Positions 1 through 63,998 of a DNA stretch of 64,000 nt are shown here, piece by piece. Under the pieces are notes generated by a model. That model made no database searches. It was not told the origin of the DNA and saw only the letters and a list, made by a program, of their open reading frames with translations. The position numbers and the translations under genes are program-made. Every line of letters starts with the position of its first letter. The stretch's first letter is position 1. Source of the DNA: a virus (lineage: Duplodnaviria > Caudoviricetes); IMG/VR virus record IMGVR_UViG_3300022217_000228, positions 1 through 64,000 of that record; one strand, 5' to 3'.

Positions 1-90
1 CGCTATGCCACATCCCTGAAAATATTGTGGGTTGTCTACTCCGTGATCGACTATTTCATAGTCGCTGATTATTTTGTTTGTTGAATCCAT
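1..90 (-). CDS. Hypothetical protein, N-terminal part (MDSTNKIISDYEIVDHGVDNPQYFQGCGIA...), runs off the left edge
   Basis: ATG at 90 with GGAGG RBS and an upstream promoter; frame open to position 1. Confidence 0.6.
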   Translation of the reverse strand, partial: MDSTNKIISDYEIVDHGVDNPQYFQGCGIA

Positions 91-131
91 GTGATCCTCC
101 TTGGTGGTTGGTTTGATTTGCTTACACCTAA

Positions 132-160
132 AAGATAACACAACCCGCTTGCGATGTCAA
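132..160 (-). promoter_or_regulatory. Sigma70-type leftward promoter
   Basis: TTGACA-17 nt-TATCTT on the minus strand. Confidence 0.7.
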
Positions 161-4581: not shown

Positions 4582-4614
4582 ATATATTTCACATAATCAG
4601 TAGTTGGTGTCAAG
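4582..4614 (+). other. attI-like cassette entry site A
   Basis: ATATATTTCACA-9 nt-GTTGGTGTCAAG directly before the first + strand cassette; same 12-mer at 49297-49308. Confidence 0.55.
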
Positions 4615-4647
4615 TTTTTGAACTTTTAATTTGGAGGAAATTTTACT

Positions 4648-4956
4648 ATGTGGAGATTATTGGAAGTCGGTGAAGTTCGTCAGAGAGATGATGAATATAT
4701 ACTCAATGCGAATCCGTGGGAACCTATTGGGTCAATCATCGGAATACCGTTTAAAGATGGTGACAACCCGGTGCGCCGTAAAATTTCGGATAATTCGGAG
4801 GTTCAAAAACCAACCGCTAACATCGACTATACGGCGGTGCTTAAAAAGGAACTGAATCAATGGATTAATTCAGCGCCATCAGTTGTTGCCGAGAAAGATA
4901 TTCATCAATTTGCAGCGCACCTCAATGCCGTGATAAACAAACGGCACTGCACATAG
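4648..4956 (+). CDS. Cassette-borne hypothetical protein, translated through its attC
   Basis: GGAGG RBS; PTANIDYTAV is encoded by the hairpin left arm. Confidence 0.7.
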   Translation: MWRLLEVGEVRQRDDEYILNANPWEPIGSIIGIPFKDGDNPVRRKISDNSEVQKPTANIDYTAVLKKELNQWINSAPSVVAEKDIHQFAAHLNAVINKRHCT

Positions 4957-4973
4957 TCGAGAACCGTTGTGCG
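4814..4973 (+). other. attC-like site
   Basis: CCGCTAAC-ATCGACTATACGGCGGTGC ... GCACTGCACATAGTCGA-GAACC-GTTGTGCG. Confidence 0.8.
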
Positions 4974-5004
4974 AAATGTTTTTTTGAGAGTATAGGAGTT
5001 TGCC

Positions 5005-5235
5005 ATGACACTAAAAGAAGCATTTGATTTTTTGCAACAGAGGCATCGTGTTGTAGAAACCGAAAGCGATACCGAATCAAAATCATGGCAAGCTCTGAAG
5101 TCAGCGGTATTCGCTCAACAGCACTTAACAGGCGATAAAAACGAGCCGGAGGACATTACGCCCTGTGAACATGAGTGGAGGGCGGCGTGTACTCAGGCGA
5201 TTTGTAGGAAGTGTGGAGAAATATCAGATGATTAA
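5005..5235 (+). CDS. Cassette-borne hypothetical protein with Cys-rich C-terminus inside the attC loop
   Basis: AGGAG RBS; CEHEW...CRKCGE lies in the loop. Confidence 0.7.
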   Translation: MTLKEAFDFLQQRHRVVETESDTESKSWQALKSAVFAQQHLTGDKNEPEDITPCEHEWRAACTQAICRKCGEISDD

Positions 5236-5273
5236 CGACGGCGTAACGTCTTTTATCGCCGAACCGTTGGCCA
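5121..5273 (+). other. attC-like site
   Basis: CACTTAAC-AGGCGATAAAAACG ... CGTCTTTTATCGCC-GAACC-GTTGGCCA; same family as 63827-63992. Confidence 0.8.
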
Positions 5274-48994: not shown

Positions 48995-49005
48995 TAATGT
49001 CCTTT

Positions 49006-49136
49006 TTCACAACGGTCCGCGAATATGTGCAGTGCTGGAGCCATCCGGCTTATTTACGCGCCTTTGGGCTGGTGCCGAAACCCGCATAATCCAACTTAGT
49101 AGCACAACCAGCATTGCATATATTCGCTGTTGTATG
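49006..49136 (-). other. attC-like site of a solitary cassette
   Basis: CATACAAC-AGCGAATATATGCAATGCTGG ... CCAGCACTGCACATATTCGC-GGACC-GTTGTGAA. Confidence 0.85.
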
Positions 49137-49283
49137 TTGAAGGAGATTTCCTCCATAGTGTAAAAGCGATATGTTAATTATTTTTCCCGGACGGAACGGC
49201 CTTATCCGATGTTCCGTATATTTGATAATTAACTCTCGGATGCGATATCGCATTACAACCATAAAAGAAATCTCCTTTTGCAT
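49050..49283 (-). CDS. Cassette-borne hypothetical protein (likely start 49262)
   Basis: AAGGAG RBS just after the entry core; HTTANI is encoded by the hairpin arm. Confidence 0.6.
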   Translation of the reverse strand: MQKEISFMVVMRYRIRELIIKYTEHRIRPFRPGKIINISLLHYGGNLLQHTTANICNAGCATKLDYAGFGTSPKARK

Positions 49284-49308
49284 ACAACTATATTAGTGTG
49301 AAATATAT
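49277..49308 (-). other. attI-like cassette entry site B
   Basis: ATATATTTCACA-8 nt-GTTGTATGCAAA. Confidence 0.55.
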
Positions 49309-55989: not shown

Positions 55990-57030
55990 TTATGACAAAA
56001 TCATTTCTGCTTCGACATAGGAAGCACGCAACTCAGAAACATGATTAGTCGTCATTTTCTTTTTTAATTCAGGAGTTATTTCTTTTCCGAGTTTTTTTAA
56101 ATCGTCCAGAGATTCGCACAATACAATTCTCCCTTTGTATTTTTTAAGAATTGTGGTAGATTCAGACTCTTTTAGTGCGTCTTCTTTGGTTATTTGTTCG
56201 GCGTCTATTGCTGCTGTTTCATCTTCTGATTTCATGGCAGCCTGCTTACCGCCAAGAAGAGGAAGAAGTGGCTTGATAAGGTTGTCATAATTAGGCGAAA
56301 TTATTGTACGACCTGATAGTATCCCGGTGCGATCCTTCTCAGCAAATGCTGTGATTGATGCCAAACCACCCTTTTTGTCTTTAGTTGACTCCATGTGCAT
56401 TAGAATGTGTGGCTCGTATGGTGTTTCACCTTCTGCCTTCATTTTAGTGCCAATGTTTTTTAATTCGCCTGTTTCTTCATCTTCTTCGAAGTCGTTGCCC
56501 TGTCGACCGCATATAATCACATGCATTGGAGAAGAAAGAAGGTAATTGATTAATTCTTTATAGGGTTTTTTGATTTTTCCCCAAGCATGAAAAGGAATCG
56601 TACCTGCTGATGTAATTTTTCCTTTGTATGCCTGTTTTGACGCTTCCCAGATGTGAGTTATAGAGTCTATGATTATTATTCCATACTCATTTGGATTAAG
56701 TCCTTTTACGTCGCTAATTACTTCTGTAATGGAGCGGGTATAATTAGCATCAAAATCAAAGGCTCTCGGGTGTACTTTTCTTTCCTCCACATCCTTGCAG
56801 TAAAAATCTGTTCCACGCTCAGTATCAACAAATGCTATTCGTTTTCCGGTAAACGCTGCTAATCCTTCGGCACATAGGAGCGCCGTAAATGTTTTCCCGC
56901 TTCCTGATTTCCCATAAAAACCGATTTTTAATGCTGCTTGCTCTGCCTTTGCTTTTCTAAATCCAGCCATAATTAAATCCCTTTCACCTATTGCATAATT
57001 GTAAATGGACAAATCTTTCTTTAATCTCAC
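55990..57030 (-). CDS. AAA-family ATPase, Sak4-like phage recombination protein (likely start 56970)
   Basis: YGKSGSGKT, FVDTERG, IIIDSITH, HVIICGR. Confidence 0.85.
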   Translation of the reverse strand: MRLKKDLSIYNYAIGERDLIMAGFRKAKAEQAALKIGFYGKSGSGKTFTALLCAEGLAAFTGKRIAFVDTERGTDFYCKDVEERKVHPRAFDFDANYTRSITEVISDVKGLNPNEYGIIIIDSITHIWEASKQAYKGKITSAGTIPFHAWGKIKKPYKELINYLLSSPMHVIICGRQGNDFEEDEETGELKNIGTKMKAEGETPYEPHILMHMESTKDKKGGLASITAFAEKDRTGILSGRTIISPNYDNLIKPLLPLLGGKQAAMKSEDETAAIDAEQITKEDALKESESTTILKKYKGRIVLCESLDDLKKLGKEITPELKKKMTTNHVSELRASYVEAEMILS

Positions 57031-57114
57031 AAAACGATTTTACCCACTGCTTATCAGATTTTCTTTTAACCACGATTCCACAGTGTACACACCTGTATTT
57101 TCTGATTCGTATTT

Positions 57115-57303
57115 TCATTGCTGTGTTATAGGCTGTTGGCAAGATTCCTCATTTCTTAAAATGCGAGGACAATCACCCTCTTCACAACGATGTGTTTCGT
57201 TAATTCTCGACAAACAAACATAGCCCAAATTACCCCCATGACAGCGTTCACGCGCATTACAAAACCATTTGAATTTATCGAAATCTTCATTTAATAGAAG
57301 CAT
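57115..57303 (-). CDS. Last cassette gene, Cys-rich; followed by a degenerate attC
   Basis: GGAG RBS; inverse core GCCTATAAC at 57125-57133. Confidence 0.65.
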   Translation of the reverse strand: MLLLNEDFDKFKWFCNARERCHGGNLGYVCLSRINETHRCEEGDCPRILRNEESCQQPITQQ

Positions 57304-57332
57304 TTTACTCCAATCGTTTTGAATTGCCTATT

Positions 57333-57468
57333 GCCTACAACGTTTGCGAAATGTGCGCCGTTAAAACCTATAGCCACAATGAGGACACGATTCAACGGTA
57401 TCCACCTTGATTAACTTACGACAACCAGGGCACGGCTCTTTTAATGGCGCACTTTCTGCTGTTGATGG
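57333..57468 (-). other. attC-like site S1
   Basis: + strand: GCCTACAAC-GTTTGCGAAATGTGCGCC ... GGCGCACTTTCTGCT-GTTGATGG. Confidence 0.88.
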
Positions 57469-57645
57469 TTGTGCTACGGGTTCCACAGTGTAATCAGCGC
57501 TCGACAGGAAATTTTCCAACCCTCGTAATTCTGCCTGTGCTGCCCGTTCACAACCGAGTTTAACTTCATTACCTGCTAATTGTTCAACAGCTATACTACT
57601 GGAAATAACCTTTAATCTGGACTCGATATATTCTGATAGTTTCAT
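57361..57645 (-). CDS. Cassette gene with C-terminal Zn ribbon inside the attC loop
   Basis: CPGC...CPHC. Confidence 0.7.
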   Translation of the reverse strand: MKLSEYIESRLKVISSSIAVEQLAGNEVKLGCERAAQAELRGLENFLSSADYTVEPVAQPSTAESAPLKEPCPGCRKLIKVDTVESCPHCGYRF

Positions 57646-57680
57646 AATTGCGTTTATCCAATCTATTTAAGAGTAGCATT

Positions 57681-57857
57681 TCCACCAACGGACTAGGCAT
57701 CCGCCCGAAGTTGCCGTTCTAAAAATTCGTGATACATTTCTGCCATAAAAACAACATCATCTTTAATGCCACCTGCTCCAATTTCCCACAAATATTCAAT
57801 AAATGATTCCTTATTGTCTTCCCATAACGGCAATTTTGGGCTGCCTGGGTTGGTGGA
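57681..57857 (-). other. attC-like site S2
   Basis: TCCACCAAC..AGGCATCCGCCCGAAGTTGCCG ... CGGCAATTTTGGGCTGCCT..GTTGGTGGA. Confidence 0.88.
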
Positions 57858-57986
57858 TGCGTTTTCGACCTTAGTTAAAGCTTCTTTTATGCGATACCAC
57901 GAATCAATAACTTTTTCTGGGTGACAAATATATTTAAAACTTGAGTCTATCGTTTTTATGTCATCAGTAAGCATAAAAGACTCCAA
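57693..57986 (-). CDS. Cassette gene, related to 63546-63797
   Basis: Shared STNxGSPKLP and RQLRAxA. Confidence 0.7.
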   Translation of the reverse strand: MESFMLTDDIKTIDSSFKYICHPEKVIDSWYRIKEALTKVENASTNPGSPKLPLWEDNKESFIEYLWEIGAGGIKDDVVFMAEMYHEFLERQLRADA

Positions 57987-58000
57987 TCAACTGAACGTTT

Positions 58001-58076
58001 CCACCAACGTCTTGGCATACCAGAAGTGCGTCAGCATTTGGGAGAGGCTTCCGAACCTGCTATTGTTTGTTATAGG
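58001..58076 (-). other. attC-like site S3 (short, weaker pairing)
   Basis: CCACCAAC..TGGCA..GAAG ... CTTC..TGCTA..GTTATAGG. Confidence 0.65.
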
Positions 58077-58083
58077 CTGTTTG

Positions 58084-58617
58084 TCAACCATCCTTATTAT
58101 CCTTTTTGGAGGCGGTCTTAGCATTAGCACAAAAATCTAACCATCCTTCCTTATTACCTGTTTTCAAAAATGGCTCTGCTGCGGCTAATACCTGAAGCGC
58201 GTTCGTGTAATATGTAAGACCTTCTCCGTGACTGCCCCAAAGGTTAGTAATTCCAAGGCAGGAAGCTAACGCCGATATCGTTGCCCCATGAGCAGACTGT
58301 AGAACATCAGAGCCGTTTTTGAATATCCAATCGAGGTTAGATTTTTGTGTAGCTTCTTCTTTCTCCTCATTTCCCCATTGCTGCAATAGATCCATACGAT
58401 CCGATTGAATTAATTCTAATTGTTGCTCGTAATACCATGACGATTCGCCTCTACCTTTTATATGAATGGTATATTGTTGCGATTCGCGTTTACCGCCTCC
58501 ATATTGGTCTTTATATGACCCAATTACAATAGCGTAACAGTCTGATTCAAAATGTGACATCGTGGGACCGAGGTCTTTTATTACGTGAACAAAGTCTCCT
58601 TTGTGATATTTTTGCAT
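58084..58617 (-). CDS. Cassette gene, hypothetical with SH3/KOW-like N-terminus
   Basis: KGDFVHV...AIVIGSY...SWY; GGAGG RBS. Confidence 0.75.
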   Translation of the reverse strand: MQKYHKGDFVHVIKDLGPTMSHFESDCYAIVIGSYKDQYGGGKRESQQYTIHIKGRGESSWYYEQQLELIQSDRMDLLQQWGNEEKEEATQKSNLDWIFKNGSDVLQSAHGATISALASCLGITNLWGSHGEGLTYYTNALQVLAAAEPFLKTGNKEGWLDFCANAKTASKKDNKDG

Positions 58618-58658
58618 TAGTAGCCTCCAAAACTACAATATAAAACGGTTGATAAATT

Positions 58659-58796
58659 GCCTATAACGGTTTGCGAAATGGCCGAAGTAGTGCACCCGCC
58701 GAAGCTCCCGTTGAGCTTGCACTGTTTATGTCGGGTTAGTGCGCGGCCCACGTCGGAAGTATCGAGTGCACTATTTTGACCTTTCGCTGTTATTGG
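58659..58796 (-). other. attC-like site S4
   Basis: GCCTATAAC..GCGAAATGGCCGAAGTAGTGCAC ... GTGCACTATTTTGACCTTTCGC-T-GTTATTGG; the ORF stop TAA lies in the inverse core. Confidence 0.9.
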
Positions 58797-58999
58797 CATG
58801 TTGTTGCCGATTCTATAGCCAACTTTTTTCGCTGGCGTTTATATTTAATACCTTTCCAACTTGAACAAAATCCATCGCTACTAGTACGAGTATCCTGTAA
58901 ATCACAGATACCAGGATTGGCGAATTTATCGTTTACCCATTTAGTATACCAAGTACAAGAACCGCATCGTTTTTTATGTATCAAAGCGAAAAACTCCAA
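58790..58999 (-). CDS. Cassette gene, small Cys-rich protein
   Basis: CGSC...C...C; GGAG RBS. Confidence 0.7.
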   Translation of the reverse strand: MEFFALIHKKRCGSCTWYTKWVNDKFANPGICDLQDTRTSSDGFCSSWKGIKYKRQRKKLAIESATTCQ

Positions 59000-59018
59000 T
59001 TCTCAAGAGGCAATAATT

Positions 59019-59097
59019 GCCCATAACGTTCGATGCTACCAGACGTTTTAATGTTCCGAAGGACAAGCGTCAGCGCCGCTGGTAGCATTTGTTGGCT
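59019..59097 (-). other. attC-like site S5
   Basis: GCCCATAAC..ATGCTACCAG ... CTGGTAGCAT-TT-GTTGGCTG. Confidence 0.85.
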
Positions 59098-59287
59098 GCT
59101 GTGCAGCGTGTTCCGCCATTGCTGCGGCGCATCTATCGGAAAATCGATTAAGCGCCGACAATACTCCAGGTTCCAAACAGATACGATCTGTAGGGTTTTC
59201 ATGATCATTTGCATGTAACCAGATAGCGTATCCATCAAAAAGACCATAGACACCATCTCCGAGATAATCTTTCATTACAAATTCCAT
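59048..59287 (-). CDS. Cassette gene, phage-type hypothetical (ORF track extends it upstream to 59455)
   Basis: KDYLGDGVY...ICLEP; AAAGG RBS. Confidence 0.7.
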   Translation of the reverse strand: MEFVMKDYLGDGVYGLFDGYAIWLHANDHENPTDRICLEPGVLSALNRFSDRCAAAMAEHAAQQPTNATSGADACPSEH

Positions 59288-59321
59288 TGCGCCGCCTTTC
59301 TGTAAATTTAAGAGCTGCATT

Positions 59322-59423
59322 GAACACAACGTTTCCAGGTTTGGTGAAGTGCCGCGTGTTTTTGCGGCATTTGCCGAAGGCCGAAGTGAGCTTGCGAACG
59401 GAGCACCAAACCTGTGTTGTAAG
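59322..59423 (-). other. attC-like site S6
   Basis: GAACACAAC..CAGGTTTGGTG ... CACCAAACCTG-T-GTTGTAAG. Confidence 0.88.
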
Positions 59424-59451
59424 CTGTAAACCTGCCCCTGCCTTTTGCCTT

Positions 59452-59700
59452 TCACGCCGCCGCCTTCTTTTTGTTCTTTTTAAAATATTCCTTCAGTATC
59501 ACGGATACTGTCTTGTTTCCCGATCTCTCATCCTCTTTCGCCTTTTTATCTATCATCGTCCAAAGGTTTGATTCAAGATAGATGCTTCGTGACGTCATTT
59601 GACTTGTTTTCATATTTTCATCTATTTTGGTGTAAGACATTATGAAATATATAAGACTTCCTCTTGCCTTTGTCCTCACTATAAATATTGCTGCTATCAC
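59452..59700 (-). CDS. Arc/ribbon-helix-helix-like DNA-binding protein (likely start 59640 or later)
   Basis: RSIYLESNLWTMIDKKAKEDERSGNKTVSVILKEYF. Confidence 0.65.
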   Translation of the reverse strand: MIAAIFIVRTKARGSLIYFIMSYTKIDENMKTSQMTSRSIYLESNLWTMIDKKAKEDERSGNKTVSVILKEYFKKNKKKAAA

Positions 59701-60034
59701 ACTTTATTGGAATAGCAATCCAAAGATCATTGTTTTTGTCGGGTTTATTATACTTATCCTGCAAAGTTGTATCGAAATGTTGAAATGTCTTACTATTGAT
59801 ATTGACAATTGGCTCAAGTTTAAACTGTATAGAATTGACATCAAGCTGCTTAGATATCCTTCCAAAAAGGAGAAATACGATGCAAAAGAGAAGAACTATC
59901 GTAATAAGGCTAACAGGAGAGTAGTATTCGCTGAACCTGTCTTGATAATACTGCAAGTCACGGTTTGTCTCGGTACCTTGTTTATTCTCTTTTGGGGAGC
60001 TATTCATTTTTCCTCTATTTTTTAACCTCATCAT
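59618..60034 (-). CDS. Hypothetical membrane protein; an antiparallel ORF (59642-60025, +) is equally open
   Basis: One transmembrane segment, co-oriented with the array; coding strand unresolved. Confidence 0.35.
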   Translation of the reverse strand: MMRLKNRGKMNSSPKENKQGTETNRDLQYYQDRFSEYYSPVSLITIVLLFCIVFLLFGRISKQLDVNSIQFKLEPIVNINSKTFQHFDTTLQDKYNKPDKNNDLWIAIPIKCDSSNIYSEDKGKRKSYIFHNVLHQNR

Positions 60035-60128
60035 GCACTATTAAATAATGTTAAAAATGATTATTCTTTTCAGTATGAAAACGTTGCTTCCTGGCTATCC
60101 GAGAATTATTAATAGCCATTGTTATCAT

Positions 60129-60449
60129 TCATTTTATATTCCTTTTTATTCTAACTTGTCTTTCGGCGGCGTCTTCCTGTCTTCGGGCAGGTTTTTTGCT
60201 TACAACGGGTTGCCGCACTCGCCAGCAGTACCCCACCGGAATAGTTTGCATTACCGGCAGCCTCGCACTTCTCGAACGTAGCGATCTCGTCCCAGAGCTT
60301 GAGGTATTGCTGGCTGCGGCTGTTGTACGATGTAAAGTGAGCTTCCTTAGTGTAAGCACAATCCAGCTTCGGAAGAAGTCTAATTTCACTTTTTGAAAAG
60401 TGCTACGACTTGAAAGTCCACTGTTTGGTTTAATTGTGCTTATTAACAT
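60129..60449 (-). CDS. Cassette ORF reading through the whole of S7
   Basis: RTTAAA in the usual frame; coding status uncertain. Confidence 0.4.
   Translation of the reverse strand: MLISTIKPNSGLSSRSTFQKVKLDFFRSWIVLTLRKLTLHRTTAAASNTSSSGTRSLRSRSARLPVMQTIPVGYCWRVRQPVVSKKPARRQEDAAERQVRIKRNIK
60198..60329 (-). other. attC-like site S7
   Basis: GCTTACAAC..GCCGCACTCGCCAGCAGTACC ... GGTATTGCTGGCTGCGGC-T-GTTGTACG. Confidence 0.88.
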
Positions 60450-60465
60450 GAAAGCTCACTTTATT

Positions 60466-60609
60466 TTGTACAACGGCTTCAGGCACCCGCCTGCCGTGGC
60501 CGATAGAAATCGTCTGCATCTCGAATACAATGATTTGCACCTAAAAGGCAACACTGCCCCTTTTTATTATCACAATCGTCAGGACATGGCAGGCTGCCTG
60601 GGTTAGAAG
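60466..60609 (-). other. attC-like site S8
   Basis: TTGTACAAC..CAGGCACCCGCCTGCCGTG ... CATGGCAGGCTGCCTG-G-GTTAGAAG. Confidence 0.88.
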
Positions 60610-60802
60610 CTGTGGGCTGGGTTCCGCTGCCTTTTGAAATTTTACGAAGTAACGTACCACCAAACATTAACGGATAAACACCTACAGCTTGCCCGGCATA
60701 TAAAAAACTACACTTCCCAGGCTCCTTCAACTCTATTACAACCACATCACCGACTTTAGAGTATCCGTTACCAGCTTCTCTATATCCCGGTATATTAATC
60801 AT
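60479..60802 (-). CDS. Cassette gene with Cys-rich tail in the attC loop (ORF track starts it at 60931)
   Basis: GGAGG RBS before MINIPG; CPDDC...CC...HC. Confidence 0.7.
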   Translation of the reverse strand: MINIPGYREAGNGYSKVGDVVVIELKEPGKCSFLYAGQAVGVYPLMFGGTLLRKISKGSGTQPTASNPGSLPCPDDCDNKKGQCCLLGANHCIRDADDFYRPRQAGA

Positions 60803-60838
60803 AGTAAAATTTCCTCCAATAAATTTAAGAGTCGCATT

Positions 60839-60995
60839 GCTTCTAACGTTTGCGAAACGTGCGCCGTTACTTGAAACACGGTTTATTAGCATAACAATGT
60901 AGATTTTTATTTTTAATAGTACATTCATCATAATAACAACACGGCCTTGCGCTCCATTCTTCGTATTCTAATGGCGCACTTTCTGCTGTTGGATG
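60839..60995 (-). other. attC-like site S9 (same family as S1)
   Basis: GCTTCTAAC-GTTTGCGAAACGTGCGCC ... GGCGCACTTTCTGCT-GTTGGATG. Confidence 0.88.
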
Positions 60996-61166
60996 CTGTT
61001 GCTCGGCGCTCCCCTTGCCCTGCCGGGCTTCACCGCAGTACAATTCCATAACATCAGATACGTATAAATATCCACGCTTATCCCCATGAAAAGCTACCTT
61101 CACACTATTTAAACATGCATCGTTTAACTTATTATCGATTAAAAACTTCTGTTCCTTAGATCCCAT
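60867..61166 (-). CDS. Cassette gene with Cys-rich tail in the attC loop
   Basis: HPTAESAPL followed by CCYYDEC...HC...C. Confidence 0.7.
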   Translation of the reverse strand: MGSKEQKFLIDNKLNDACLNSVKVAFHGDKRGYLYVSDVMELYCGEARQGKGSAEQQHPTAESAPLEYEEWSARPCCYYDECTIKNKNLHCYANKPCFK

Positions 61167-61211
61167 AAAAACTACCTTTTACCCGGCCTTTAACATGGCC
61201 GCCGAGCAATT

Positions 61212-61293
61212 GCCACCAACGGGTTGCAAAACGTATTTAGTGCGGTACGCTCTCATACTGCCTCACCGCGTTGAATACTTTTGCTGTTATGGG
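61212..61293 (-). other. attC-like site S10
   Basis: GCCACCAAC..GCAAAACGTATTTAGTGCGGT ... ACCGCGTTGAATACTTTTGC-T-GTTATGGG. Confidence 0.9.
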
Positions 61294-61968
61294 CTGTAGC
61301 GCCCGATTCCTTATTTAAAACCGCAATGAGCTGTTCTCCGAGAAACTGCGTGTAAGCCGGCGGTATAGCTTGCGTTAACTCTTTCCTCGTCATCCAATCT
61401 ATGCCCATTGCGTTTCTCCACTCAATGACACTTCCCTTTGAGACATCACGCATGACTGTCCCCCATGTTTTCCAACGACCTGCACCACCGGCAACAGAAT
61501 AATAACCCTCTCCGATACGGCGACCGCGGTGTGATGGATGAGGAGGAATAAAAAAAAATGACTACAATCAAAATGGCGATGTCTGAAAACTTTTAAACCG
61601 AACATTAAACCACATAGCGTTATTGACTTATCAAGCGGAGCGCCTGGCACGTTTTCAACTACATATGGTATTCCAATTTTTTTTAATTCCGCAAGTGTCG
61701 GCGTAAGGTAATCAATATATTTTTTACCTCTGTTACGATGGACATTGGAAGCAATTGACCATTTCTGACATGGGGGAGAGGCATGTACTACATCGAATTC
61801 GTGATGATGATCCCGGAGATATTCCAGTGCATCAGATTGGATAAACTCAAATGGATACCGTTTTTGAAAAACAGTATCGACACCTACGATCTGAGTAAAG
61901 CCGGCCCTGAAATAACCCTTCGCTGCTCCACCTCCACCACAGTACAAATCTAAAAGTTTCCAGCTCAT
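61253..61968 (-). CDS. C5-cytosine DNA methyltransferase split by a -1 frameshift at a T9 run
   Basis: LLDLYCGGGG, HASPPCQ, VVENV in the first frame; MGIDWMT...QAIPPAYTQFLG in the -1 frame. Confidence 0.85.
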
Positions 61969-61998
61969 TGCCTATTTATTCTCCAAGAGGGCGGTATT

Positions 61999-62124
61999 GC
62001 CTATAACGTCTGATAAACGGGTGAAGTGTCTACCGGGTTTTTCGGCACACACCGAGAGGGCTGCCACCTTTGACCTCATAGTATTCATTTGTAGAATCAC
62101 ATTTCACCCTTTATTTGTTGTGTA
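61999..62124 (-). other. attC-like site S11
   Basis: GCCTATAAC..ATAAACGGGTGAAGTGT ... ACATTTCACCCTTTAT-TT-GTTGTGTA. Confidence 0.88.
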
Positions 62125-62237
62125 TTGGTTTTGCGCTTCCGCCATTTGGCAAAAACGACACACCAACACCATAACATATTTTTAGAATACTCAGTTGCTT
62201 CTTTACAGCCTATACACGGACACTTATCTTTTGCCAT
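62097..62237 (-). CDS. Cassette gene, 46 aa Cys-rich protein (ORF track starts it at 62462)
   Basis: GGGGA RBS; CPCIGC...WCWC. Confidence 0.55.
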   Translation of the reverse strand: MAKDKCPCIGCKEATEYSKNMLWCWCVVFAKWRKRKTNTQQIKGEM

Positions 62238-62259
62238 ACAATCCCCAAAAGCAAAACTT

Positions 62260-62444
62260 GTACACAACGGTTTAGCAAGGCAGAAGTTTGCGACTACAAT
62301 ATGGGCAAAACTGCATACCGTCAATTGACAAAATTGATTGTACCAATTCACCACAAGATGTATGAAAAAATCCACCATGCTCATTTTCCTTAATTTCCCA
62401 CTCGCAAATTTCCGGAGGCGAAAGCTGCCTTGCTTTGTTAGCGG
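62260..62444 (-). other. attC-like site S12
   Basis: GTACACAAC..AGCAAGGCAG-AAGTTTGCGA ... TCGCAAATTT..CTGCCTTGCT-TT-GTTAGCGG. Confidence 0.88.
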
Positions 62445-62616
62445 AATGTAATGCGAGTTCATTAGCTTTTAAGGCGGCAACTATTTCCCGGTGAAAACCA
62501 CCAAAAAGAGTTCTAAAATATTCACCCTTACCGTCTATCGATAAATCAGATATTGCAGTGTTCAAGTAAGCTCCGAGCCTACCATTCCCTGGATCGCACA
62601 TATTTGATATATCCAC
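62272..62616 (-). CDS. Cassette gene with Zn-ribbon domain in the attC loop
   Basis: CEW...TSCG...FCPYCS. Confidence 0.75.
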   Translation of the reverse strand: MDISNMCDPGNGRLGAYLNTAISDLSIDGKGEYFRTLFGGFHREIVAALKANELALHSANKARQLSPPEICEWEIKENEHGGFFHTSCGELVQSILSIDGMQFCPYCSRKLLPC

Positions 62617-62653
62617 TTATTGCCGCCTTTATAATAAATCTAAGAGCATTATT

Positions 62654-62736
62654 TCCGCTAACGGATTGGCAAAGAGCCGAAGTGCGGTACACTCTCATAT
62701 TTACTTACCCGCATTTTGGCTTTTGCCTGTTAGCGG
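62654..62736 (-). other. attC-like site S13
   Basis: TCCGCTAAC..GGCAAAGAGCCGAAGTGCGG ... CCGCATTTTGGCTTTTGCC-T-GTTAGCGG. Confidence 0.92.
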
Positions 62737-62752
62737 TTGTTTTGACCGCATC

Positions 62753-63109
62753 CTAATTATCCTTTCGGCGAACGGCGGTTACACACTCTCGATACTTAAC
62801 CATCCAATCGCCACAGTCTTCATGTGCCCACGGATCATCTTTATACTGTTCGTACAAGATGGAATCATGTTTCTTTAAATCATCTATAGTTGCATTATAG
62901 GCAAGAGGACAATCCCATGAATTACAGCATCCTGGCTCCTGCTTGTTCTTGAATTTAGACGCACAACCATAACCGCCGTTTGGTATATTATCACCTGTAC
63001 AAAATAATCCGCATTCTCCAGATAAATTATCAATGTCTATTAAAACTGGTACTATGTTTCTATATGCCATATTTTCTCCAGTGAGCCGAACTACAATCTC
63101 AGCGGTCAA
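62753..63109 (-). CDS. Cassette gene, Cys-rich hypothetical (possible start 63070)
   Basis: CGLFC, GYGC, CCNSWDCPL; stops before its attC. Confidence 0.7.
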   Translation of the reverse strand: MTAEIVVRLTGENMAYRNIVPVLIDIDNLSGECGLFCTGDNIPNGGYGCASKFKNKQEPGCCNSWDCPLAYNATIDDLKKHDSILYEQYKDDPWAHEDCGDWMVKYRECVTAVRRKDN

Positions 63110-63113
63110 AATT

Positions 63114-63277
63114 GCCGCTAACGGTTTAGGTTAAAAGAAGTGCCGCCATAAAGCAGCGTTACATTCTATACCACCACGCGAAAGGCAAAAGCTGCATCCA
63201 GCTACCGGACATTCGGAACATGAGGGCGGCATTTGCGGAGCCGTAGCGTTAGCGGAGCTTTTAACCTTTGTTGTGTG
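63114..63277 (-). other. attC-like site S14
   Basis: GCCGCTAAC..AGGTTAAAAG-AAGTGCCGCC ... GGCGGCATTT..CTTTTAACCT-TT-GTTGTGTG. Confidence 0.88.
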
Positions 63278-63502
63278 GGCGCTTCGCCGGACTGGTTTTG
63301 TTGACTCCACATTATCCAGTGATTCTATGAAAGCTGCTACTTGACGCAAGCAATCGGGACGCCACCAAGTTAGATCGTCGCTTATTAGACACCACCTTTT
63401 CTTTCGGCTTACCCACTCTTTATGTATACGGCCGATTGCAACTGTACGATAACCAAAAACTGTAAACCCTTTATCGTCCGCTTCTATTTTTAGAGCTTTC
63501 AT
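63131..63502 (-). CDS. Cassette gene, phage-type hypothetical with Cys-rich tail
   Basis: IGRI..W...WC...CLRQVAAFI; CSEC...CSFC in the loop. Confidence 0.75.
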   Translation of the reverse strand: MKALKIEADDKGFTVFGYRTVAIGRIHKEWVSRKKRWCLISDDLTWWRPDCLRQVAAFIESLDNVESTKPVRRSAHTTKVKSSANATAPQMPPSCSECPVAGCSFCLSRGGIECNAALWRHFF

Positions 63503-63533
63503 AAATCACCTTTAATATGGTTCAACAAAACTT

Positions 63534-63679
63534 GCGCACAACGTCTCAGGCACCCGCCCGAAGTTGCCGACACAGTTCATCGTAAAACTGCTGAGTTACC
63601 CACCTATGACGATCCTCTGCACCAGTAGCCTCAAACATCTCATCGTGTGTCGGCAATTTTGGGCTGCCTGTGTTGGTGG
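63534..63679 (-). other. attC-like site S15 (same family as S2)
   Basis: GCGCACAAC..CAGGCACCCGCCCGAAGTTGCCGACAC ... GTGTCGGCAATTTTGGGCTGCCTG-T-GTTGGTGG. Confidence 0.92.
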
Positions 63680-63797
63680 AAGTAAATTTTTCCTCCACCA
63701 GTTTTTTTATGCGGCCCCAAGCCTCCATCGGCCACAATTTGCCATAGCTAATGACCGCCTCTTCAACATCGGTAATATCCCCTTTGGTTATAAGCAT
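63546..63797 (-). CDS. Cassette gene, related to 57693-57986
   Basis: GGAG RBS; STNTGSPKLP, RQLRAGA. Confidence 0.7.
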   Translation of the reverse strand: MLITKGDITDVEEAVISYGKLWPMEAWGRIKKLVEEKFTSTNTGSPKLPTHDEMFEATGAEDRHRWVTQQFYDELCRQLRAGA

Positions 63798-63826
63798 ATA
63801 CTACAATCTCCAGAGAAAAATTTATT

Positions 63827-63992
63827 TCCACCAACGGATTGGCGATAACAGAAGTTACGCCGGTTGATAATTACTAAGACAATCTACCGAATTAATTTTC
63901 CACATACAATTAAGACCACCAACGCATCGTGAACAATTAGGCGTAATTTCCCCTTCGGGCAAGGCTTCCGCCGTGTTATCGCCTGTTGTAAG
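63827..63992 (-). other. attC-like site S16
   Basis: TCCACCAAC..GGCGATAACA ... TGTTATCGCC-T-GTTGTAAG. Confidence 0.88.
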
Positions 63993-63998
63993 CTGTGC
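63855..63998 (-). CDS. C-terminal part of a cassette gene entering from the right edge
   Basis: LTTGDN...EITPNCSRC...C...C resembles HLTGDKN...DITPC of 5005-5235. Confidence 0.5.
   Translation of the reverse strand, partial: AQLTTGDNTAEALPEGEITPNCSRCVGGLNCMWKINSVDCLSNYQPA

Follow-up and report, generated by a model that had tools for sequence, protein, structure and literature searches.

Cassette ORFs that read through attC-like hairpins and encode linker-plus-tail peptides in a phage genome

In integrons, the ORF of a gene cassette normally ends before its recombination site, so a phage array in which ORFs continue through attC-like hairpins raises the question of whether these hairpins also encode protein. 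We addressed this using a 64,000-nt stretch (the window, positions 1-64000 of the 73-kb phage record IMGVR_UViG_3300022217_000228). A sequence-only reading had noted that most ORFs of the array at its right end cross the inverse core and that many loops encode Cys-rich, putatively zinc-binding tails. It inferred that the sites are dual-coding and that the variable loop acts as a slot for a second protein module. The arm peptides and Cys motifs that it listed are all present in the sequence where it placed them. The observation is confirmed, and it generalizes to other arrays.

Positions 57.1-64.9 kb hold about 19 attC-like hairpin sites bounding one-gene cassettes, and there are three further cassettes at two other loci (Table 1; cassettes are numbered C01 onward and their sites S01 onward). 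On the coding strand, each site comprises [ACAGC-N4-AAC], then 0-3 nt and the L'' arm, the loop, the L' arm (with a 1- or 3-nt bulge and an ACTTC motif), and a 4-6 nt spacer followed by [G|TT-N4-GCAAT]. A custom finder hits only array sites in the 73-kb genome (although it misses S03 and S18), and cassette ends are complementary over 15-34 nt. The motif TATATTTCACAYNA occurs exactly three times in the genome, each time with 8-9 nt between it and the first G|TT of an array.

Table 1. Cassettes and hairpin sites, in window coordinates.
Feature	Span	Strand	ORF	Site	Remarks
C01	57334..57645	-	57361-57645 (94 aa)	S01, 57334-57468, 133 nt	Read through; arm encodes QPSTAESAPL; loop encodes a CPGC-x13-CPHC zinc ribbon; stop ends 19 nt before the G
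C02	57682..57974	-	57693-57974	S02, 57682-57856, 173 nt	Read through; arms encode STNPGSPKLP and RQLRADA; loop helical, no Cys; TAG stop in the spacer
C03	58001..58617	-	58084-58617 (177 aa)	S03, 58001-58077, short	ORF ends 7 nt before the site; classical layout
C04	58660..58999	-	58790-58999 (69 aa, Cys-rich)	S04, 58660-58796, long	ORF stops in the AAC box; loop is itself base-paired and is not read by the cassette ORF
C05	59020..59287	-	59048-59287	S05, 59020-59098, short	ORF crosses the arm (QQPTNATSG) and stops in the loop
S06 and its cassette	59323..60199	-	59452-59610 (minus strand); 59642-60025 (plus strand)	S06, 59323-59424, short	Ribbon-helix-helix ORF (minus) ends before the site; membrane ORF on the opposite strand (plus)
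S07 and 140-bp cassette	60199..60470	-		S07, 60199-60329, long	No convincing ORF; flanked by a 34-nt inverted repeat; the only ORF here runs past GTT
C08	60467..60805	-	60479-60805	S08, 60467-60610, 141 nt	Read through; arm encodes ASNPGSLP; loop encodes CPDDC..CC..C; TGA stop in the spacer
C09	60840..61166	-	60867-61166	S09, 60840-60996, 154 nt	Read through; arms are those of S01 (HPTAESAPL) but loop unrelated (CC..C..C..C)
C10	61213..61968	-	61253-61968 (C5 DNA methyltransferase)	S10, 61213-61294, short	Frameshift in an A9 run at about 61545-61559; last 17 residues or so encoded by the site
C11 (mini-cassette)	62000..62237	-	62097-62237 (46 aa, Cys-rich)	S11, 62000-62125, long	ORF stops 17 nt into the site
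C12	62261..62616	-	62272-62616	S12, 62261-62444, 182 nt	Read through; arm encodes SANKARQ; 54-aa tail has C..C..CPYC..C; TAA stop in the spacer
C13	62655..63070	-	62753-63070 (Cys-rich)	S13, 62655-62736, short	ORF ends before the site; classical layout
C14	63115..63502	-	63131-63502	S14, 63115-63278, 161 nt	Read through; arm encodes HTTKVKS; loop encodes CSEC-x4-CSFC..C
C15	63535..63797	-	63546-63797 (83 aa)	S15, 63535-63679	Read through; paralogue of C02 with near-identical arms and a diverged helical loop; TGA stop in the spacer
S16 and tail of C16	63828..64000	-	63855 to about 64190-64223 (beyond the window)	S16, 63828-63993, 163 nt	Read through; arm encodes LTTGDN; loop encodes CSRC..C..C
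S17, S18 and head of the array	64.2-64.9 kb				Outside the window
Solo cassette	49003..49307	-	49053-49262 (70 aa)		Order: attI-like motif (49286-49307), G|TTGTATGC, ribosome-binding site, ORF that reads through the arm (HTTANI), hairpin, G|TT; directly upstream of the next gene
Two-cassette array	4583..5268	+	4648-4956; 5006-5236		Behind an attI-like motif (4583-4605); both ORFs read through their sites (PTANID; LTGDK.., CEH..C..CRKC)

In 8 of the 11 long sites (121-182 nt) of the main array, the cassette ORF runs through the arm and the whole loop, and the stop codon ends 3-19 nt before the G of GTT. The exceptions are S04, S07 and S11. In short sites (74-99 nt), the ORF stops in the loop (S05, S10, S18) or before or at the box (S03, S06, S13). 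Across nine arrays, 39 of 44 long sites are read through, against 25% of control frames (binomial P = 9e-19). Of the 39 stops, 27 end 1-8 nt and 12 end 19-36 nt before the G, and only 1 of the 44 long sites has an ORF that runs past GTT. One arm family (NTGSPKLP...RQLRAGA) is open in the same frame in 55 of 55 metagenomic copies (38 distinct loops), with the stop directly after the L' arm. A profile search finds 288 representative proteins at E <= 0.001.

It should be noted that the ORFs do not all cross AAC in one frame, as the sequence-only reading had claimed for most of them. Among the ORFs of this genome that read more than 6 nt past AAC, the split is 8 (xxA ACx), 5 (AAC as a codon) and 1 (xAA Cxx), and across nine arrays it is 15, 34 and 11. 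The frame is fixed within an arm family only.

Dual coding is supported at two levels. At the DNA level, the arms are complementary and are 100% identical, synonymous positions included, in phages of 29-56% GC, although the loops are unrelated. At the protein level, the same stretch keeps its frame open and has its stop just before the crossover, and the codon log-likelihood ratio is +0.15 per codon in the ORF frame (compared with +0.22 in phage genes) and negative in the other frames. Cys content is 8.4% in site-encoded tails, 3.1% in the heads (G|TT to AAC box), 5.0% in other array ORFs and 1.4% in long phage ORFs. Six of the eight read-through loops have 4-5 Cys, whereas S02 and S15 have 0-1. 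The S01 loop hits the Pfam zinc-ribbon family UPF0547 at 30.3 bits (cut-off 29). AlphaFold2 predicts helix, then coil, then a ribbon for C01 (block-mean pLDDT 82-86), and four helices for C15 with the arm-encoded residues 40-50 as coil. Arm-encoded peptides are 62% A/T/P/S/Q/N. Most cassette proteins here are orphans (a search with C14 found only itself), so selection on loops was measured on relatives' cassettes rather than on this window's own loops. In those, pN/pS is 0.06-0.44, and although this rests on few substitutions per pair, one comparison (L033 against L060; L numbers are used here for relatives and other phages) shows 10 synonymous and 2 non-synonymous changes (P = 1e-5).

The idea of the loop as a slot is also supported. 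The same arms carry helical or zinc-ribbon loops, and the C02 head family occurs with a helical loop here and with a zinc-ribbon loop in L032. In addition, one head occurs with two unrelated tails, and the DNA homology ends at the AAC box. For short sites, however, the tail looks like a mere extension, because methyltransferase homologues end about 17 residues earlier.

We therefore consider it likely that this is a phage-borne, integron-like gene-cassette system in which the recombination site lies inside the gene. Each cassette runs from a TT-box leader with ribosome-binding site, through the ORF head, the AAC box plus L'' arm, the loop, the L' arm and the unpaired spacer, to the G. The AAC box and L'' arm are read as a flexible linker rich in Ala, Thr, Pro, Ser, Gln and Asn, the variable loop encodes a C-terminal mini-domain of 25-45 residues (a zinc ribbon, another Cys-rich knot or a helical hairpin), and the L' arm encodes the last 5-8 residues. 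The stop codon sits in the unpaired spacer 1-8 nt before the G|TT crossover, or just before L'. The same 120-180 nt would thus serve both as a folded single-strand recombination site, constrained as DNA, and as the last third of a small protein, constrained as protein. The arms are conserved adapters, and because heads and loops occur in different combinations in different phages, the loop works as an exchangeable protein module.

Neither translation nor recombination has been demonstrated directly, and it is by inference that the proteins are made, that the Cys tails bind zinc, and that the products are early accessory (host-takeover or counter-defence) factors. We also infer that cassettes are moved at G|TT by a small Xer-like tyrosine recombinase. 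This phage has no tyrosine, serine or Y1-HUH recombinase, so the enzyme would act in trans, or the array may be frozen. In the relatives L034 and L020, Xer-like genes of 298 and 268 aa lie just upstream of the arrays, each followed by CGTATAAY-AAG-WAG|TTG, which resembles the three entry sites here. Importantly, bulged bases lie on the L' arm in 51 of 56 asymmetric sites, which mirrors canonical attC, so integron rules may not transfer.

Of the alternatives, the one that survives best, although we consider it unlikely, is that read-through is a by-product of compaction. In this case, the sites are real recombination sites and the ORFs do run through them, but only because of pressure to waste no DNA in a phage. 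The tails would be tolerated or weakly useful extensions, and head/tail combinations would arise from ordinary illegitimate or homologous recombination at the conserved arms, not from a dedicated module-exchange role. Consistent with this, the methyltransferase cassette gains only an unconserved tail that attC-free homologues lack, and short sites give tails of only 2-15 residues. However, long loops are found almost only where they are coding (39 of 44), contain recognizable zinc-ribbon ligand patterns conserved across diverged copies, show pN/pS below 0.5, and are predicted as folded units.

It is less likely still that these are not recombination sites at all, but RNA-level or DNA-level regulatory hairpins (terminators, translational couplers) or in-frame selfish palindromes such as the Rickettsia palindromic elements, with a coincidental resemblance to cassettes. 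The lack of a recombinase in this genome, the bulge geometry and the absence of any Rfam match are in keeping with this. Against it are the invariant AAC/GTT boxes, the offset complementarity of cassette ends, the solo cassette between G|TT junctions behind the same entry motif as the arrays, and the recombinase genes that abut arrays in relatives. Also, the same cassette lies behind a different upstream neighbor in two phages (another cassette's site in L016, non-cassette sequence in L017), and on the mRNA strand the arms carry A.C mismatches rather than G.U pairs, and the arm duplex is weaker by 1.3 kcal/mol on average. Finally, although one cassette gene has a homopolymer frameshift and the contig is a metagenome assembly with a single supporting run, the possibility that ORFs extend through the hairpins by chance or through sequencing or assembly errors is contradicted by the read-through statistics and by the same architecture in independent assemblies from many samples.

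The closest known systems include integron gene cassettes with their attC sites. As in integrons, the cassettes are one-gene, promoterless and in one orientation, with an entry site at the head of each array, and the sites are imperfect hairpins with AAC...GTT boxes, an L-box stem, an unpaired spacer and a variable loop. Also shared are crossover at G|TT (inferred here), cassette first bases that complement the cassette's own inverse core, and a G:T bias that makes the non-coding strand fold better (PMC5027507). However, in integrons the ORF normally ends before attC or overlaps it by 15 bp or less (the ACID rule, PMC2674596; in R100 the aadA1 stop lies 2 nt before R''), whereas here whole sites are coding. 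The bulges are on the arm next to the crossover box, the spacer is asymmetric (0-3 nt against 4-6 nt), no IntI is present, and the recombinases of relatives lack the IntI-specific insertion. The L' arm searched was found in 1 of 185,579 bacterial and archaeal species genomes.

Arrays of attC-type sites without an integron integrase (CALINs) have been reported in virulent and temperate phages, where DNA methyltransferase cassettes occur too (Qi et al. 2023, PMC9892861). The arrays highlighted there have few sites (the TJE1 example has 3 attC sites and 4 ORFs), as opposed to about 19 plus three outliers here, and ORFs reading through the sites are not mentioned in the parts of that paper that we searched.

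Coding attC sites have so far been reported only as engineered constructs (Nivina et al. 2020, PMC7439510), in which the hairpin arms are made to encode unstructured peptide linkers and the sites are embedded inside an enzyme gene while staying recombinogenic, the principle being that attC is constrained by structure, not sequence. Those sites have loops of 3-21 nt and were tested with IntI1. Here the arrangement is natural, the loop is 60-130 nt and encodes a domain, and the stop codon is placed in the spacer.

In Rickettsia palindromic elements, a palindromic DNA element likewise appears to be translated as part of a protein (Ogata et al. 2000), but those appear to be near-identical selfish insertions at internal positions of conserved genes. 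Here the element is always the 3' end of a cassette gene, has a variable protein-constrained loop, and carries recombination boxes. Lastly, translation can enter or cross attC in fused integron cassettes and in short ORFs inside attC, and loss of attC fuses neighboring cassettes (PMC8876359). A relative (L119) shows such hairpin-deleted junctions, but the integron cases are rare accidents or short coupling peptides, not a systematic linker-plus-domain design.

The record, a single 73,346-bp IMG/VR virus sequence, is 96% complete by CheckV, and IMG/VR classes it as linear although its first bases recur near its end (see the table below). It encodes a portal protein, glycosyltransferases, and a Sak4-like annealing protein that lies directly downstream of the region of interest. 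The portal protein had no match among isolated phages. We found no tyrosine recombinase, integron integrase, serine recombinase, or Y1 HUH transposase in the 73-kb genome, and no match to PF00589 or TIGR02249. The one DNA sequencing run found for the sequence, which is probably the source sample, showed only the source contig and no joints.

In the main array, small minus-strand ORFs are separated by imperfect hairpins (sites labeled S01 to S18, with their cassettes C01, C02, and so on). On the coding strand, each site reads ACAGC-N4-AAC, then 0-3 nt, then the L'' arm, the loop, the L' arm (with a 1- or 3-nt bulge six pairs from its base, and an ACTTC motif), and a 4-6 nt spacer ending in C, followed by G|TT-N4-GCAAT. 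AAC and CGTT are invariant in 21 of 21 aligned sites, and arm duplexes of -13 to -25 kcal/mol were found in 17 of 18 sites. The two ends of each inter-site segment are complementary over 15-34 nt, as a circular cassette intermediate would give. A motif of about 14 nt, TATATTTCACAYNA, occurs exactly three times in the genome, each time upstream of the first G|TT of an array (the main array, a solo cassette, and a two-cassette array on the other strand) with 8-9 nt between. It is an attI-like entry site, with no recombinase gene beside it. The solo cassette is a complete unit between two G|TT junctions, placed between a promoter-like sequence and the ribosome-binding site of the next gene. This is, therefore, an integron-like cassette array with canonical polarity (entry site, G|TT, gene, hairpin).

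A covariance model of the sites could not be built; MAFFT did not align the arms across loops of 20-130 nt and RNAalifold found no pairs. We used a purpose-built arm-duplex finder instead, which reports only these sites in the whole genome, although it misses S03 and S18. A looser version of the finder, applied to loci of Sak4-like relatives (L001-L014), gave only noise with no strand bias. Rfam gave no match.

Coordinates of features in this phage and in related records (L handles denote loci; L015 is part of the same genome)
Feature	Coordinates	Strand	Description
Repeated contig ends	window 1-137 and genome 73210-73346		First 100 bases or more of the contig recur at 73,210, about 137 bases from its end
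Main array	about 57.1 to 64.9 kb	-	Small ORFs separated by hairpin sites
Entry motif, two-cassette array	window 4583-4605	+	attI-like
Entry motif, solo cassette	window 49286-49307	-	attI-like
Entry motif, main array	L015:888-908 = genome 64888-64908	-	attI-like
Lone AAC-type box	57118-57135 (within window 56984-57142)		At the ATGA stop/start overlap between a 62-aa ORF (57115-57303) and a 44-aa CxxC ORF that precedes the Sak4-like gene
Atypical cassette	window 59432-60199		Ribbon-helix-helix ORF (59452-59610, minus strand) and opposite-strand 127-aa membrane ORF (59642-60025); terminator-like hairpin follows at about 60176-60198
Cassette with no convincing gene	window 60199-60485		140 bp, flanked by a 34-nt inverted repeat; its long site is S07
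Frameshift	window 61545-61559		In a run of nine A; splits the C5 methyltransferase cassette gene (C10)
Example sites with L' bulges and longer L' spacer	window 62655-62736, 63535-63679		
Repeat ORF	L015:1285-1512 (genome 65285-65512)	-	75 aa, almost entirely Gly-Tyr-Gly-Ser-Gly-Asp repeats; just beyond the array
Xer-like recombinase, L034	L034:10226-11122		298 aa; immediately upstream of a cassette array in a related phage record
Xer-like recombinase, L020	L020:4143-4949		268 aa; immediately upstream of a cassette array in a related phage record
Fused cassettes	L119:2500-4150		Related phage; methyltransferase and three small ORFs between the same glycosyltransferase and LicD genes

The sequence-only reading had proposed that ORFs are translated through the sites and that many loops encode Cys-rich tails, and every peptide and Cys motif it listed is present. 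In eight of the 11 long sites of the main array (S01, S02, S08, S09, S12, S14, S15, and S16; 133-182 nt), the cassette ORF crosses the AAC box, the L'' arm, and the entire loop. Its stop codon ends 3-19 nt before the G of GTT, either in the unpaired spacer (with TAG, TGA, or TAA as its first bases) or just before the L' arm. Short sites (74-99 nt) are entered for 10-13 codons (S05, S10, and S18) or not at all (S03, S06, and S13). It should be noted that S04, S07, and S11 are long sites that are not read through. The loop of S07 has a protein-like frame with no start codon, so it may be a stranded tail, and the lone AAC-type box, which has no convincing partner arm, may be a decayed last site or native sequence. 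Cys makes up 8.4% of site-encoded residues, 3.1% of the heads (the ORF portions that precede the site), 5.0% of other array ORFs, and 1.4% of long phage ORFs, and six of the eight loops have 4-5 Cys. The suggestion that the ORFs cross the box in one frame holds only within an arm family, and all three frames occur.

Several lines of evidence indicate that the sites are coding. In-frame codon usage inside them is gene-like (+0.15 log-likelihood units per codon, against +0.22 for phage genes) and is strongly negative in the other frames. The S01 loop (C01 residues 72-94) matches the Pfam zinc-ribbon family UPF0547 (PF10571) at 30.3 bits, above the curated cut-off of 29, whereas other tails give only sub-threshold zinc-ribbon hits. 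AlphaFold2 models C01 as a long helix, a low-confidence linker that includes the arm-encoded residues, and a beta-hairpin ribbon with block-mean pLDDT 82-86. With an alignment of 25 sequences, C15 is modeled as four helices, in which the arm-encoded STNTGSPKLPT is the only long coil and the L'-arm residues end the last helix; Foldseek of this model against PDB found nothing at E <= 0.001. Arm-encoded peptides are 62% Ala, Thr, Pro, Ser, Gln, or Asn, which is linker-like.

The arrangement is not confined to this phage. Searching for the C02/C15 arm gave cassettes with the same arms in other viral contigs of 29-56% GC and in one metagenome-assembled bin, all in one-orientation arrays of 2-13 sites. 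An exact 22-mer of the S01/S09 arm had no match in viral contigs, and C14 has no relatives in an index of 5.8 billion proteins. Over nine arrays (69 sites), 39 of 44 long sites are fully read through, whereas 21 of 88 other sense frames and 34 of 132 antisense frames, used as controls, are open (P = 9e-19). Of the 39 stops, 27 end 1-8 nt and 12 end 19-36 nt before the G, and only one of the 44 long sites has an ORF that runs past GTT. In metagenome contigs, the same 19-mer arm was found 77 times, and in all 55 copies with the partner arm on the contig (38 distinct loops), the frame NTGSPKLP...RQLRA(G/S/D)A is open and the stop follows the L' arm directly. A profile search of 1.84 billion representatives found 288 proteins at E <= 0.001.

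The sites are constrained at two levels. The arms are 100% identical, synonymous positions included, across these phages, while the loops between them are unalignable. Loops fall into protein families: a helical class ending in a conserved aromatic/acidic motif before RQLRA, a CxxC...CPxCG ribbon class, and a second Cys-rich class. Related loops differ mostly at synonymous sites, with pN/pS of 0.06-0.44. For example, locus L033 against L060 shows 10 synonymous and 2 nonsynonymous changes (P = 1e-5), and L016 against L017 shows 3 synonymous and 1 nonsynonymous change in the loop. Thus, the loop peptides are under purifying selection.

The proposal that the loop acts as a slot for a second protein module is also supported. 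C02 and L032_692 (from locus L032) share a head family (35% identity, E = 2e-6) and the same arms, but C02 has a helical loop and L032 has a zinc-ribbon loop. L034_13002 and L038_5887 (from loci L034 and L038) share a head (72% identity), with DNA homology that starts at G|TT. By eye on the MAFFT alignment, it ends at the AAC box, although blastn carries the match 21-23 nt further on weak matches. The tails that follow are unrelated, one helical and one Cys-rich. The blastn blocks between arrays are of three kinds: whole cassettes, arm pairs without loops, and 35-60-nt leaders. The loop therefore behaves as an exchangeable slot, and the head as a second one. Overall, the dual-coding and slot interpretation is supported, although expression, zinc binding, the recombinase, and the swap mechanism are inferred.

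Not every tail is a module. The C5 methyltransferase cassette (C10) ends about 17 residues later than most of its 1345 homologs, one of which (P0008) sits in an ordinary phage operon with no hairpin, and the C-terminal fragment of the C10 methyltransferase had no PDB sequence match. Read-into-site tails at short sites therefore look like incidental extensions. The frameshift in this gene could be a sequencing error, a pseudogene, or a phase-variable tract. In the related phage L119, the hairpins are deleted and the AAC-box arm is joined straight to the next cassette leader; these are fused, immobilized cassettes.

We considered a reversed-polarity model, in which the crossover is at the AAC box and the cassette is a hairpin plus the next head, but rejected it as the main insertion route because of the solo cassette, the three entry motifs, and the absence of a matching downstream AAC box. 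It survives only as a possible second crossover. In that tentative scenario, the hairpin arms would be in-frame exchange junctions, and the recombinase, or recombination guided by the conserved arms, could cross over at the AAC box as well as at G|TT. Protein heads and hairpin-encoded tails would then be re-paired site-specifically, giving phages a natural combinatorial library of two-module mini-proteins, and the mirror-image bulge geometry (see below) would be what allows the coding strand to be recombined.

An interpretation as in-frame palindromic selfish elements of the Rickettsia type, with near-identical copies inserted at internal positions of otherwise conserved genes, does not fit, because the sites are always at the 3' end, with the stop in the spacer, and the loops are unrelated between copies.

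Compared with the canonical integron attC site, the boxes, stem, spacer, offset complementarity, entry site, and G:T bias match, although the boxes fit RYYYAAC / GTTRRRY only loosely and the spacer is asymmetric (0-3 nt against 4-6 nt). The non-coding strand arm duplex is 1.3 kcal/mol more stable on average, in 53 of 69 sites. However, three defining features do not match, and we therefore call the sites attC-like. First, bulged bases lie on the L' arm, next to the crossover box (the same arm as AAC on the non-coding strand), in 51 of 56 asymmetric sites. This mirrors canonical attC, the geometry of which we confirmed on the R100 aadA1 attC and in Nivina et al. 2016 (PMC5027507). Second, there is no IntI. 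In the related phage records L034 and L020, the small Xer-like recombinases (43% identical to each other) are each followed by CGTATAAY-AAG-WAG|TTG, which resembles the three entry sites here. Both score below the curated cut-offs of the XerC, XerD, and IntI models. The recombinases beside related arrays match TIGR02249 in two stretches (profile positions about 4-180 and a second stretch), and the related IntI model NF011946 is matched at positions 254-316; we read the gap between as pointing to absence of the IntI-specific insertion. Third, the ORF/site overlap, 97-162 nt in eight sites of the window, far exceeds the 15 bp or less assumed for integrons (PMC2674596).

CALINs in phages have been described (PMC9892861), and coding attC sites have been engineered as peptide linkers (PMC7439510), but we found no description of natural sites whose loops encode protein domains. 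The sites described here suggest a large pool of tiny predicted zinc-ribbon and helical proteins in phage early regions whose tails are modular, and they change how cassette arrays should be annotated. They also suggest that a structure-specific recombination site can be written inside a gene in nature, with the arms serving as a disordered linker and the loop as a folded domain, which is the design principle proposed and engineered for synthetic attC sites in 2020.
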